Source: Coriobacteriales bacterium
GTDB lineage: Bacteria > Actinomycetota > Coriobacteriia > Coriobacteriales > UBA8131
Direction of reading: 5' to 3'
NCBI GenBank assembly: GCA_031263105.1
Contig: JAISGJ010000173.1
Location: forward strand, 940 to 64,939
DNA: 64,000 nucleotides
Below are positions 9,001-12,000 of the stretch, piece by piece (position 1 is the first letter of the stretch; every line of letters starts with the position of its first letter). Made by a program: the position numbers.

Positions 9001-12000
9001 GTGCGGTATCTCGACCAGAGATAAGACGACAGCTCGGCGGGCCGTTTTCGGGCGAGGCAACGAGGCAGCGAGGAGGCGAATGCGCCTCAGGCCGGTGCCT
9101 CCCTACAGCTCCTTGCAGTACAGGATGACCTCGTGGTCGAGGTCGGCTATCTTGAGAGGGTACCGCTCTGTCCTCATCGAGTAGCCCATGTCCTGCCAGA
9201 AGTTCATGCCCTTCCTTTGCAGGGGTATCGCAAAGATGCTCGTCGCCTCCACCTCGGAGCCCAGCGCATACTTCTCCACCTTCTTCACGATGGCGCTGCC
9301 GATGCCCTGTAGGCGGAACTGCGGGTCGATGACGAGGTGCTGGATGACCCAGTCCCCCTTCTTCGGCCAGCCGATGACGACAAGGGCATATCCGACAAGG
9401 GCCTTGTCCCGATAGGCGCGGAACAGCAACTTGTCCGAGGCCTCCCTGCCGGACAGTATGTTCGTCTCCTGTTCAAAGGAGATGAACTCGTTTGTCAGGC
9501 CGACCAACGACCTGATGCCGGAGAACGCCCGCTTGCGCATGGCGTCGATCTCTGCAAGCTCTATTCGTGCAAGTTGGCTGATAAAAGCACAATCTATGCG
9601 GAGGGCGTCGATCGGAGAGCCCTTGCCGAGTATGGACTCATACCCTTTTGGCGGTTCCTCTCCTGTGGGTAGCGGTTTCTTGGGCATCGCTGCCACCCTT
9701 CTCTAAAATCTACTCTGGCCCCTCAGTCTATCAGCAGTCTATCAGAGCCACGTCCCCGCTCGCAGTTTGTTCTGGCATCGTTACCATGCGTGTTGCCGTG
9801 ACGTTACTGGCCACACCTTCCACGGACACCCCACTGTCATCCCGAGCCCCCCACTGTCATCCCGAGCCCCCCACTGTCATCCCGAGCGAAGCCGAGGGAT
9901 CCTTGGGTCCGAGCGCCCGGAAAACGCACCGCGTTTTCAGCGAGGACGGGCCGACAGGCCCACGGAACGCAAAGCAGCCGACCGCAGGTCGAGGCACCCT
10001 CTAGCCGCAGTCGACCGCTTACGCGGTCGAGGATCCCTCGGCAGGCTCGGGATGACAGTGGGGGCCGGGATGGCAGTGGGGGCCGGGATGACAGTGGGGG
10101 CTCGGGGCGGCGGCGGGGGGGGCTCGGGATGACAGTGGAGGGGTGAACAGCAATCCGGTCACTCCAGCTGCTCAAGCCGTGACGCGAGTTCGCGCACACG
10201 GGGGTCGATGCGCACGCTTGCGGGGTTGCCCACGAAGCGGGCGGTGGAGGCAAGCACCTCGTCGACGATGACGAGGTTGTTCTCGCGCAGGGTCGTCCCC
10301 GTCGCGGTGATGTCGACGATGCGCTGCGCCATGCCGCACAGCGGGGCGAGCTCGATGTTGCCGTGCATCTTGACGAGCTCGACCTGCACGCCGAGGGCGC
10401 GATAGTACGCCGCCGTTATGCGGGGGTACTTGGTCGCGACGCGAAGGACGCCGAGCGTCCGGTAGGCCTCCTCCGTCTCCCCTGCCGCCTGCGCCGGCTC
10501 CGCCACGACGAAGCGGCAGGCGCCGAAGCCCAGATCGGACAGCTCGACCACTTCGAGCGCCGCCTCGACGAGGGAGTCCTTGCCGCAGATGGCGCAGTCG
10601 ACGCCCCCGTAGCTGACGAAGATCGGCACGTCGGTGGGGCGCACGATGTAGAACTCGGCCTCCTCGTTGGCAATGACGAGCTGCCTGCCGGGGTCGTCCA
10701 GGCCACGGATGTCGAGTCCCGCCCTGCCCAGCAGCGCGACGCTCTCCTTGTAAAGCGCGCCTTTGGGCACCGCTATCTTGAGGGGAGGGGCGCTCATCGC
10801 TTCCTCCTTTCGCCCGGCTGCACGAGCACGGCGCGCATTCCCGCCGCACGCAGGCGGGCGGCTTCGGCGAAGGCGACCGCAGGCGCGTCTGCGTCCACCT
10901 CCACGGCCGCACAGGGAGGGTCGAGGATGTCTGCGGCGGCGGTGACGCCCTGCTCCGCCAGCGCGGTCATCACGCGATCGAGGCCGAAGGCAAAGCCGGC
11001 CGCAGGCGCCTTTGCCCCGTATGCCTCCAGCATGCGGTCGTAGCGCCCCCCTGCCCCCAGGGGCACGCCGAGCTTGGGCGCATAGGCCGCGAACACCAGG
11101 CCGGTGTAGTAGTCGAAGGCGCTCATGACGCTGAAATCGACCGTCACCTGCCCCGCCGCCCCCATCTCCTCGACGATCCCATAGGTCTTGGCGAGAACAT
11201 CGAGCCCGTCGGTGCAGCCGAGCGGCCCTGCGAGCTCCTGGCAGCGCCTGATGGCGTCGCCGCCGCCCCGCAGGCCGGAGAGCTCCTTGAGCGCCTGGCC
11301 GTAGCGCCGCTCGACCCTGGGGTCGTCCGCCAGGGCGGCGAGCTCGACGGCGTTGCTCAGATGGCAGGCGGCCAGCACCTCGTCGCGCCACGAGGGGCCG
11401 ACCTCGGAGTCCCTGACGATGACGTCCAAAAGCTCACGGAGCACGCCGACGGTGCAGATGGCGATCGTGAAGTCCACAAGGCCGCAGGCCTTGAGGGCGT
11501 CCCGCATCAGCAGGACGACCTCGGCGTCCGCCGCAGGGCCCGAAGGCCCTATGGCCTCGATGCCGATCTGGGTGAACTCGCGCGCCTGCCCGCGCAGCGA
11601 CTCCTCCTCACGGAACACCGGCTGGACGTAGCGGAAGCGCAGGGGGGCGTCGGCGCACACGGGGGGCGTGGGAGACGCTTCGGAGGTCGGGCCTGCGGAG
11701 AGCGAGGCGACCGGTTCGGAGGCCAAGCCTGTGGGGGACGAAACGGCCGATCCAGAGGCCAAGCGGGCGGGGGGCCGTCCTGCGGGCCCGCCGGCGAGCG
11801 CGAGGCGCGAGGCGACCAGCCGTGCGACGGGCAGGGTCACATCGGGCCGCAGCACGAGGAGGGCCCCGTCGGAGTCGAAGAGCCGGAAGGGGGGCTCGGC
11901 GAGCCGCCCGCCCTGCTCCAGGACGTCGAGCACCTCGAGCGTGGGGGTCTCGATGGGCGCGTAGCCCCACGACGACAACACGTGCTGCACCTTGGTCGAG

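Follow-up and report, generated by a model that had tools for sequence, protein, structure and literature searches.

Palindromic elements in very high copy number in a Coriobacteriales genome: probable non-autonomous transposons with 8-bp target-site duplications

Introduction

A REPIN consists of two inverted REPs, each REP being a short hairpin, and in the REP/REPIN-RAYT systems these repeats also border the RAYT gene. The BOX element is laid out as A-(B)n-C. MITEs are taken here as defined in PMC10969869, and the parts of that paper available to us describe prokaryotic MITEs as usually AT-rich. The available parts of PMC11602168 give a mean bacterial MITE density of 0.004 per kb and report that 97.4% of MITEs are genus-specific. 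The RPE (Ogata et al. 2000, as cited in the excerpted text of PMC10969869 and PMC3184786) are palindromic elements of ~100-150 bp that lie in frame in unrelated housekeeping genes and are read through as extra peptide segments.

The family described here is represented several times in the window, the 64-kb stretch of Coriobacteriales DNA that was analysed, and is dispersed through the assembly to which the window belongs. With Correia/CREE, ERIC, RUP, Chunjie and QMITE, as described in excerpts of PMC10969869 and PMC3184786, it shares a length below 500 bp, a non-coding nature, terminal inverted repeats bordered by direct repeats of the target, together with a large number of mostly intergenic copies, a strong single-strand stem-loop, size variants and decayed copies. 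Like CREE, it has many copies 5' of genes. The family differs from known MITEs in that it is GC-rich, that no parent IS was found, and that its arms can hold 2-13 tandem subterminal units. Its density of ~0.05-0.19 per kb is 12-48 times the bacterial mean given in the excerpts of PMC11602168, and its inner arm motif spans phyla, in contrast to the genus-specific distribution of 97.4% of the MITEs in the same source.

The likeness to RPE, drawn at the level of description, lies in palindromic inserts that are in frame in conserved protein genes; however, the in-gene copies of the present family are a small minority, and the family has clear terminal repeats and 8-bp duplications. BOX of Streptococcus pneumoniae, as outlined in PMC3184786, is likewise modular and non-autonomous with a variable tandem array of a short module, whereas the array here is formed by the subterminal unit in either arm of a palindrome, in another organism and presumably in unrelated sequence. 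The REP/REPIN-RAYT systems (PMC3733652; Bertels & Rainey) also feature an abundant intergenic palindromic repeat, and the host genome encodes RAYT-like genes, of which one is bordered by hairpin repeats of its own. The family differs from these systems in its terminal repeats and 8-bp duplications, in a location that is not beside the Y1 genes and in a unit that is not a hairpin. We regard it as a variation on the known MITE type, with a cross-phylum motif as a further lead.

Structure of the element in the window

The unit CCCCACTGTCATCCCGAG has three exact matches on the + strand (9829-9886) and three matches at two or fewer mismatches on the - strand (10046-10140), and for the whole window 13 matches were counted where 0.01 would be expected. 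When the sequence is read directly, the right arm holds five units, one with three mismatches and one converted to G/C only. As single-stranded DNA, the segment 9825-10145 folds at -124.4 kcal/mol (z = -11.7), and none of 100 shuffles folds equally well. An earlier note had set the limits of the element at 9830-10139; these must be moved outward to 9803-10154, since the units are enclosed by an outer inverted repeat of 14 nt. The element and its surroundings are made up as follows.

9795-9802, no strand: left 8-nt flank GCCGTGAC, read as a decayed target-site duplication (5 of 8 positions equal to the right flank)
9803-9816, + strand: left outer terminal inverted repeat GTTACTGGCCACAC (family consensus GTTACnGTnCACAC)
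9817-9828, + strand: 12-nt module CTTCCACGGACA that links the outer repeat to the units, from sequence reading
9829-9888, + strand: left arm of three tandem units CCCCACTGTCATCCCGAG(CC) with a period of 20, all exact matches
9889-10045, no strand: GC-rich core of ~157 nt with small hairpin modules, of the longer core class
10046-10140, - strand: right arm of five inverted units, of which the unit at 10064-10081 has the three mismatches
10141-10154, - strand: right outer terminal inverted repeat, degenerate, GGGTGAACAGCAAT, from reading and the window search
10155-10162, no strand: right 8-nt flank CCGGTCAC, overlapping the stop codon of the HisG-domain gene
9103-9696, - strand: flanking GNAT acetyltransferase gene (Pfam Acetyltransf_1, E = 3.3e-11)
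10159-11391, - strand: flanking HisG-domain gene (Pfam HisG, E = 4.4e-47)

The element sits 107 nt upstream of the acetyltransferase start, and the stop codon of the HisG-domain gene is 5 nt from its other end. The linker module CTTCCACGGACA is present in other copies as well, in a subset only. The outermost matched units are separated by 159 nt, and the edges of the core bear the GAGGGATCC / GGATCCCTC portion of the inner arm motif discussed below. In the right-arm unit at ~10100-10122 each A/T is swapped for G/C, and this A>G / T>C pattern is found in arrays family-wide. The 5/8 match between the flanks of this copy is weak alone; the 8-bp rule derives from the family as a whole.

Further copies in the window are listed here.

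13717-13871, no strand: copy of a variant subfamily, 155 bp, bordered at either end by CCGCTCCT as a perfect 8-bp duplication
35714-35877, no strand: canonical simple copy of 164 bp whose 8-bp duplication, GGAAAGCC, is perfect
45745-45906, no strand: simple copy, 162 bp, with flanks 7/8 identical (CACAGCCC / CACAGCCT)
12182-12471, no strand: 290-bp copy, long and modular in its core, without recognisable duplication
44327-44784, no strand: long copy, given by its unit-to-unit limits, with outer ends that are not recognisable
6755-6842, - strand: truncated copy, right half only, with an approximate left limit

The copy at 35714-35877 has a single unit on each side of the core and an outer repeat at each end. 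The core of the copy at 44327-44784 contains a module of ~62 nt four times in tandem, and the same module is found in the core of the element at 9803-10154.

Anatomy and abundance of the family

The basic copy has a modal length of 162-164 bp and one unit per arm. It begins with the 14-nt outer terminal inverted repeat GTTACnGTnCACAC and continues inward with one 18-nt subterminal unit CCCCACTGTCATYCCGAG and a core of ~100 nt with three small hairpins, followed by the unit and the outer repeat in inverted orientation. The edge of the outer repeat is sharp: 199 of 210 ends start with G, and the positions upstream of it look random. The outer-repeat pattern occurs 399 times, compared to 18 times for a reversed control, and the two ends of one copy co-vary between the subtypes GTTACTGTTCAC and GTTACACGTCAC. 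The element is GC-rich and has no coding capacity and no ORF of the transposase type.

Genome-wide, the unit has 296 exact matches, 892 matches at one or fewer mismatches (reversed control 8) and 1273 at two or fewer (control 87). The genome-wide figures of the earlier note were reproduced or closely approached, and the repeat family itself is real. The matches form 787 blocks, and neighbouring blocks within 600 bp of each other are oriented +/- in 268 cases, -/- in 20, +/+ in 18 and -/+ in 11. The gap between the arms is 97-100 bp in 153 of the 268 +/- pairs; the element at 9803-10154 belongs to a second peak, at 159-160 bp. An independent census found 141 complete copies, 139 of which are shorter than 500 bp. 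With a profile built from 47 simple copies, nhmmer gave 1115 matches that merge into 555 regions spanning 69.3 kb, such that the ~555 loci account for 2.4% of the 2.9-Mb assembly. At least one copy is present on 212 of 250 contigs, and a copy is found no more than 150 bp away from 156 of 500 contig ends, compared to 6.9% expected. The copies have a median identity of 92.7% to the consensus and no two are identical; at 7% divergence from the consensus, the family is not the product of a very recent burst.

The earlier note pictured each element as carrying the same number-variable array in inverted orientation on both sides. This does not describe the family, given that 613 of the 787 blocks are single units, that 98 of 155 elements with a gap of 97-101 bp have one unit per arm, and that tandem arrays are a minority state found mostly on one arm only. 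Exact duplications are kept in 13 of 46 array-bearing copies as against 41 of 91 simple copies, and in 12 of those 13 the array is on one arm only. Because the array lengths were taken from an assembly of short reads, which is interrupted at these repeats, unit counts in arrays are uncertain. The arrays would be secondary, produced in place when slippage or unequal exchange multiplied the subterminal unit. The word ACTGT(T)CA is common to outer repeat and unit, and this one shared word of 7-8 nt suggests that the unit may be a repeated transposase-binding site.

Target-site duplication and classification

Insertion of the element duplicates exactly 8 bp of the target. Both outer repeats are present in 106 of the 268 +/- composites, 104 of which are testable; of these 104, 41 have identical 8-nt flanks and 58 have flanks that differ at no more than one position. 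Control lengths of 4-7 and 9-12 nt and offsets from -3 to +20 gave 0-1 exact matches. In the independent census, 137 of the 141 complete copies were testable, and the flanks were exact duplicates in 54, differed at one position in 19 and at two positions in 10, and thus were within one mismatch in 73; in the remaining 54 they differed at three or more of the eight positions. When the left flank of one copy was paired with the right flank of another as a control, there were no exact matches and 0.11% were within one mismatch. The target sites are 59% GC, with a weak G/C preference at -3/-2 only.

The 8-bp footprint therefore argues for a transposase-driven MITE and not a REPIN. Within one family there are short elements without a transposase gene, terminal inverted repeats, a duplication of fixed length and a consensus fold in which both ends pair, and we consider it probable that the family consists of non-autonomous DNA transposons (TIR + TSD MITEs). 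This is the best explanation of the observations as a whole and displaces the REPIN/Y1 reading. The exact duplication further suggests that the copies were moved in trans by a transposase that cuts with an 8-bp stagger, presumably a DDE/RNase-H-fold transposase of an insertion sequence, and the family would have grown in one or more past bursts. The description in the earlier note of a mobile, non-coding, palindromic family of MITE type that is very abundant and mostly intergenic holds.

The argument for mobility is drawn from the duplications, because no empty site was seen among paralogous regions, which include no filled/empty pair; the genus is represented by this one genome. Three sequencing runs of one study, labelled as termite gut metagenome, were used as contigs. 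These contained no exact join across an element, and the joints that were seen link different copies. The summed word depth in run X1 is 458-3413 in element bins and ~25 in unique sequence, a value that is not a copy number. Contigs of run X2 over the flanking genes show 22-90 differences per 355-634 nt, and one of them stops at the left edge of the element (9801); a relative of ~90% identity seems to be present in this run.

Genomic placement and copies within genes

A rough ORF map accounts for 72.5% of the genome and contains only eight of the 141 complete copies. Five named genes bear out the in-frame read-through reported earlier. In rpe, the only match to that gene in the bin, the Pfam domain is split at profile positions 91/88 within a single open frame of 729 codons. 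The cysteine desulfurase has an insert of ~125 aa relative to two family homologues, and open frames run through the copies in DapF, an IorA-like gene and Mfd. The copy in the open IorA-like gene (C204) is 235 bp long, which together with the 8-bp duplication TCTTGGGC gives 243 nt, or 81 codons. In-gene copies would have persisted only where the element plus its duplication leaves the frame open.

Between genes, 95 copies lie in divergent (promoter-side) spacers and 29 in convergent spacers (209 and 213 spacers, respectively), making them ~3 times commoner on the promoter side. Orientation relative to the flanking genes is not biased (56 versus 47). These placements bear on the proposal that the element is useful to the host as a terminator, an mRNA-stabilising hairpin or a nucleoid/recombination site, with selection keeping its number and placement and with transposition accounting for its first arrival only. 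The strong depletion in coding sequence and the position of the window copy next to a stop codon are compatible with such a role, as is the conservation of pairing: over 64 consensus pairs, 97.3% of cells are paired, compared to 32-42% with a shifted partner, and a few double changes are seen within the core hairpins. However, arm pairing is expected of any palindromic transposon and the copies are related by descent, so that the pair counts overstate selection. The excess in divergent spacers is the opposite of a terminator-like pattern, the lack of orientation bias likewise speaks against such a role, and folding shows no strand asymmetry, with the forward strand more stable in 30 of 47 copies (-117.4 versus -116.2 kcal/mol). 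No Rfam family was matched beyond sub-threshold, generic hairpins of the miRNA-precursor type; the search of window positions 5500-14500 gave one sub-threshold match (E = 0.71), and 11 loci from other phyla gave sub-threshold miRNA-type matches only. A host function that maintains the family is therefore judged unlikely.

Search for a parent transposase and the Y1 genes

The bin, which is 86% complete, contained no autonomous element or transposase with the ends of the family. It holds IS5-type (C1, C96, C11) and IS630-type (C1) elements and four Y1 genes, and gave no matches to the Pfam families for IS256, ISL3, IS66, rve, IS1595 or IS6/IS240. The IS5- and IS630-type elements of C1 and C96 were rejected as parents on account of their different ends. 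Repeat-bounded units of 0.6-6 kb in the bin included none with flanks closer than 3 mismatches in 8, and the terminal pattern led to no parent IS in genome_contigs or metagenome_contigs. Lone outer ends, considered as ends of a parent element, were mostly variant MITE subfamilies or solo ends; one at C203:426 is followed by an ATPase gene and purH and not by a transposon. Repeats of at least 400 bp found by self-BLAST, considered as IS copies, were paralogous genes of 71-98% identity. The source of the transposase may be unbinned, on another replicon or extinct.

The earlier note favoured a different mobiliser, a RAYT-type Y1 transposase of this genome (g01957) that would act on paired REP hairpins in single-stranded form. 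Two RAYT-like Y1 proteins do align with the full length of NCBIfam REP_Tyr_transpos, with scores of 64.9 and 57.2 bits that each fall short of the 80-bit cut-off. In addition, the element forms a strong single-strand hairpin, and the repeat that flanks a Y1 gene contains GTACTGTT, which is similar to the outer repeat of the MITE. However, Y1/HUH (single-strand) transposition is not known to make a target-site duplication, and the exact 8-bp duplications on the copies contradict a REPIN-like nature. The 18-nt unit is, by inspection, neither palindromic nor internally complementary, such that only the arms pair. No unit (at three or fewer mismatches) or outer repeat is found within 1.5 kb of the C191 or C165 Y1 genes. 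The C191 gene (g01957, C191:2860-3651) is instead bracketed by its own 30-nt hairpin repeat, with three copies on the left and three inverted copies on the right; this repeat has seven copies in the genome at one or fewer mismatches, on two contigs, as opposed to the ~555 MITE loci. The proposed link to g01957 falls with these observations, given that the gene has its own 30-nt inverted repeat and no unit or outer repeat within 1.5 kb, and REPIN-like movement is very improbable.

That the family is an artefact of assembly or binning, by which a foreign repeat or chimeric join is spread over a bin with 6.5% contamination, 86% completeness and an assembly that breaks at repeats and may give unreliable unit counts, can hardly be entertained, since copies, each with a duplicated 8-mer of its own, are embedded among ordinary genes on long unique contigs, are spread over 212 of the 250 contigs and leave open frames in five conserved genes, and independent Logan contigs of run X1 extend from unique sequence into the element edges with no differences.

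An arm motif in many phyla

The earlier note called the family lineage-specific, which is true of its termini and not of its inner arms. The termini have no matches in 185,579 species genomes, in 400 class genomes, in 33 family genomes, or in genome_contigs and metagenome_contigs. On the other hand, a motif of ~25 nt in the inner arm, GTCATYCYGAGC(N3-8)GAGGRATC, occurs with its inverse in small palindromic elements of Acidobacteriota, Chloroflexota, Gemmatimonadota, Verrucomicrobiota, Planctomycetota, Nitrospirota, Bacteroidota and other phyla. It is found 528 times in this genome, 480 times in one 2.9-Mb Dehalococcoidia genome and 123 times in an Acidobacteriota genome, and is absent from 60 relatives of the host. 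This distribution suggests that the progenitor probably reached the host lineage horizontally.

The elements of the other phyla, for which no printed description was found, share with the family the same arm motif, present in inverted pairs around a variable loop and in multiple copies, and often lie inside outer inverted repeats specific to their lineage. They differ in being mostly 60-110 bp long and in having neither the CCCCACT portion of the unit nor the GTTAC outer repeat. Inspection of 20 Acidobacteriota copies revealed no evident duplication. Three 20-kb pieces of the Dehalococcoidia genome gave five paired elements, all in one piece and too few for a duplication test. A literature search with the motif as a string returned one irrelevant plant paper; the sequence supplements of PMC11602168, which lay outside that search, could contain the motif. 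The idea that the motif travels with small GIY-YIG genes was dropped because a motif regular expression matched 1 of 80 loci, and none in this genome.

It is possible, although we hold the idea only tentatively, that the arm motif marks an undescribed superfamily of palindromic mobile modules that jumps between distant bacteria, undergoes repeated bursts and acquires new outer inverted repeats in each lineage. In the present lineage, these would be the GTTAC termini, read by a transposase with an 8-bp stagger, together with a subterminal unit that amplifies in tandem.

Significance

The 8-bp duplication shifts the family from 'REPIN/Y1' to 'TIR transposon', and the parent to be sought when the genome is closed is an IS bounded by GTTACnGTnCAC with 8-bp duplications. 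The repeats coincide with about one third of the contig breaks of the bin, a practical warning for short-read MAGs. The five housekeeping genes that stay open through inserts of 70-125 residues offer an RPE-like natural experiment in protein tolerance, in a GC-rich gut bacterium unrelated to Rickettsia. MITE families are normally genus-bound, whereas the arm motif is found across phyla; if this reflects common descent, it poses a question that can be tested, concerning a mobile module that is widespread and as yet unnamed, and if the superfamily is real, the conservation of the motif would point to a conserved protein or structural partner.

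Scale of the family

The 18-nt subterminal repeat CCCCACTGTCATCCCGAG, here called the unit, recurs throughout this Coriobacteriales genome (2,905,931 bases scanned, 250 contigs, 64.5% GC), with 296 exact matches, 892 at up to one mismatch (reversed control 8) and 1273 at up to two (control 87), in 787 blocks. Adjacent blocks less than 600 bp apart are arranged +/- 268 times, versus 20, 18 and 11 for the remaining three arrangements. The gap between arms is 97-100 bp in 153 of the 268 +/- pairs, with a second peak at 159-160 bp that includes the window copy. The repeat family in inverted-arm composites reported in an earlier note is real, its unit counts, +/- excess and 97-100-bp gap having been reproduced, and it is striking in scale. 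The window alone has 13 unit matches (0.01 expected).

With a profile made from 47 simple copies, 1115 matches were obtained; merged, these give 555 regions that span 69.3 kb (2.4% of the assembly), and 212 of the 250 contigs bear a copy. Contig ends lie less than 150 bp from a copy in 156 of 500 cases, versus 6.9% expected, and therefore the family breaks the assembly and its copy number is a lower bound. Simple copies have a median identity of 92.7% to the consensus and 86.7% pairwise, with no two identical, a divergence that argues against a very recent expansion.

True ends and target-site duplication

Printing of the simple copies with their flanks revealed an extra inverted repeat outside the units, GTTACnGTnCACAC ... 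GTGTGnACnGTAAC, and, beyond this outer repeat, short direct repeats that vary between copies. Genome-wide, 399 matches to the outer-repeat pattern were counted, versus 18 for a reversed control. The edge is sharp, given that the first base is G in 199 of 210 ends and the ten positions outside look random; the target of insertion shows little sequence preference. The outer repeat has two subtypes, GTTACTGTTCAC and GTTACACGTCAC, and the subtype at one end of a copy varies with that at the other, as expected for subfamilies.

Both outer repeats are present in 106 of 268 composites, 104 of which were testable; the 8-nt flanks are identical in 41 of these 104, and 58 have no more than one differing base. 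For the same 104 copies, flank lengths of 4-7 and 9-12 gave 0-1 exact matches, as did shifting one flank by -3 to +20. A second criterion, outer repeat plus unit at both ends, yielded 141 complete copies with a length mode of 162-164 bp. In the 137 that were testable, 0 to 8 flank mismatches were found in 54, 19, 10, 8, 11, 10, 14, 9 and 2 copies, respectively. When the left flank of one copy was compared to the right flank of another, there were no exact matches and 0.11% were within one mismatch. The 8-bp duplication and the true ends of the MITE are new points here.

The focal element had been placed at 9830-10139; its presence stands, and its limits do not, since the outer repeats extend it to 9803-10154. 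Its flanks are poorly matched, suggesting an older or decayed insertion.

Features of the family in the window (bare coordinates) and of the Y1 gene on contig C191
9803-10154, focal MITE copy, flanks identical at only 5 of 8
9817-9828, optional 12-nt module
9829-9886, + strand, left arm, unit three times head-to-tail (pattern match)
10046-10140, - strand, right arm, unit three times at up to two mismatches (pattern match)
10100-10122, GC-only unit
13717-13871, MITE copy, duplication CCGCTCCT
35714-35877, MITE copy of 164 bp, duplication GGAAAGCC
44327-44784, MITE copy, one ~62-nt core module repeated four times
45745-45906, MITE copy, flanks identical at 7 of 8
C191:2860-3651, - strand, RAYT-like Y1 gene, 264-codon frame (locus C191:2688-3851)

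Placement and the Y1 genes

A rough ORF map of stop-to-stop frames with high third-position GC covers 72.5% of the genome. Of the 141 complete copies, just 8 fall inside one frame and 80 have both flanks non-coding, in agreement with the claim that most copies lie between genes. Of the 275 profile loci assigned to a spacer between two called frames, 95 are in the 209 divergent spacers, 29 in the 213 convergent and 151 in the 693 tandem ones. Orientation relative to flanking genes is unbiased (56 versus 47). Placement of this kind does not resemble that of terminators.

The REPIN reading linked the element to a Y1 gene on C191. Four Y1 matches were found in the bin; two are IS200-type, and two longer ones, on C191 and C165, are RAYT-like over the full model but below the NCBIfam cut-off (64.9 and 57.2 versus 80 bits). 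No unit or outer repeat lies less than 1.5 kb from either RAYT-like gene. The C191 gene lies between copies of a 30-nt hairpin repeat of its own, three on one side and three in inverted orientation on the other; this repeat has 7 copies in the genome at up to one mismatch, on two contigs (C191 and C239:5436-5490). Gene and repeat resemble a minimal REP/RAYT-like system distinct from the MITE. Therefore, given this separate repeat, the bare Y1 surroundings and the 8-bp duplications, the REPIN reading is rejected, and the rejection of the Y1 link is likewise new.

Anatomy and arrays

By consensus, the basic copy consists of the outer repeat (14 nt), one unit (18 nt), a GC-rich core of ~100 nt that folds as three local hairpins, and the unit and outer repeat inverted. 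Cores are modular, and that of the focal copy is longer. A subset of copies has an optional 12-nt module, C[CT]TCCACGGAC[A], between outer repeat and first unit of either arm, for example at C60:1021 and C47:3823.

The arms had been described as number-variable arrays, but most blocks (613 of 787) are single units, which makes arrays the exception, and 1+1 units are found in 98 of the 155 elements that belong to the main gap class. For complete copies with both an array and an exact duplication, the array is confined to one arm in 12 of 13. The description of the element as one long hairpin therefore applies to balanced copies like that in the window (3 versus 5 units) and not in general. In the focal copy, direct reading gives five right-arm units, one of them with three mismatches and one with every A/T changed to G/C; as single-stranded DNA, 9825-10145 folds at -124.4 kcal/mol (z = -11.7), with 0 of 100 shuffles as stable. 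That arrays are mostly one-armed and probably secondary is a further new point. An exact duplication is kept in 13 of 46 array-bearing copies versus 41 of 91 simple ones, and therefore arrays either move along with the copy in transposition or form rapidly in situ.

Substitutions inside arrays are lopsided, with 522 A>G and 472 T>C versus 23 G>A (843 units, 160 arrays), although these are counts per unit and not independent events, because a mutated unit gets copied along the array. Some arrays are built wholly of GC-only variants (for instance CCCCGCTGCCGCCCCGG). The A/T loss might stem, among other causes, from biased repair in hairpins, from selection for stability or from one mutated unit having been copied. 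The outer repeat and the unit both contain the word ACTGT(T)CA, the single basis for our suggestion that the unit is a putative repeated transposase-binding site.

In-frame copies

In-frame copies were confirmed in five genes: rpe, cysteine desulfurase, IorA-like, Mfd and DapF. In rpe on C8, 300 nt interrupt the Pfam domain (profile 2-91 and 88-198) inside one 729-codon open frame; this is the only rpe match in the bin, which suggests that the insert is tolerated, since the sole rpe carries it. In the cysteine desulfurase (C117), the Aminotran_5 domain is split by an insert of ~125 residues with translated units, relative to the two homologues detected in the family (43% and 42% identity). At the DNA level, this copy has GTTAC...GTGAC ends, flanks alike at 6 of 8 positions, and a longer local duplication. 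About 40 nt of coding sequence is directly repeated on both sides of the insertion (C117:1380-1900), so that the protein insert is longer than the element. The IorA-like gene (C204) has a 235-bp copy between POR_N and TPP_enzyme_C; counted with its 8-bp duplication TCTTGGGC, the insertion amounts to 243 nt (81 codons). Mfd (C225) contains half of the element as four tandem 81-nt (27-codon) repeats, and two partial copies are read through in DapF (C103).

Classification and mobilization

Short multi-copy elements that lack coding capacity, bear terminal inverted repeats and duplicate a fixed length of target fit the definition of a MITE in PMC10969869, and this family has all of these features. 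The element is thus of an already known kind, a MITE that resembles Rickettsia palindromic elements in its in-frame copies and BOX elements in its variable tandem modules.

A fixed 8-bp duplication results from staggered target cuts 8 bp apart, a hallmark of DDE-type transposases acting on terminal repeats. On this basis, the mover would be a DDE-type transposase. The only DDE genes detected in the bin are IS5-type (C1, C96, C11) and IS630-type (C1), with ends that differ from those of the MITE. The 86%-complete bin gave no matches to Pfam families for IS256, ISL3, IS66, rve, IS1595 and IS240, and no repeat-bounded units of 0.6-6 kb with matching flanks. At C1:1-2640, an IS5-type transposase gene is nested within an IS630-type element. 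At C96:3400-4545 and C114:3880-4036, the first 22 nt of a MITE and 39 nt of flank are tandemly duplicated with a 61-nt period, beside an IS630-like end. The longest multi-copy sequences in the bin are 4-5 paralogous genes, 84-91% identical in DNA (C165:4838-7507 and 10339-12885, C90, C192, C218), which encode large proteins with signal-peptide-like N termini and are not transposases.

Distribution and origin

The terminal pattern, outer repeat plus start of unit, occurs 110 times in this genome, and is absent from 400 other genomes of the class and from searches of genome_contigs and metagenome_contigs. The inner junction occurs 481 times, versus 0 in 33 other family genomes, all of other genera. 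Runs containing the window are all labelled termite gut metagenome and belong to one study.

The relaxed inner motif of ~25 nt, GTCATYCYGAGC-N3-8-GAGGRATC, occurs 528 times in this genome, versus 0 in 60 relatives (33 from the family, 27 from the order), and also in MAGs of many phyla (at least 129 stretches in genome_contigs). Among the matches listed, 54 of 98 have an inverted partner less than 160 nt away (control 1). Each such pair makes up a palindromic element of 60-110 bp, and several of these elements are enclosed by outer inverted repeats specific to the lineage; the motif occurs 480, 123, 17, 35 and 42 times in five of those genomes (reversed controls 0). The palindrome of 20 Acidobacteriota copies has TTTT...AAAA ends, and a second inverted repeat (GCTGCGGAAAA / TTTTCCGCAGC) lies outside it, separated by 10-13 variable nt. 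The earlier description as lineage-specific therefore holds for the termini, found only in this genome in the searches made, and not for the core.

PMC11602168, which surveyed 183,232 genomes, gives 97.4% of MITEs as genus-specific and a median of 8 MITEs per genome, with a density of 0.004 per kb. Neither the motif string nor a description of such a cross-phylum element came up in the papers searched. The cross-phylum arm motif is also a new point. Common descent or convergence may lie behind its sharing, and its simplest reading is that a widespread module arrived horizontally and then underwent a local burst.
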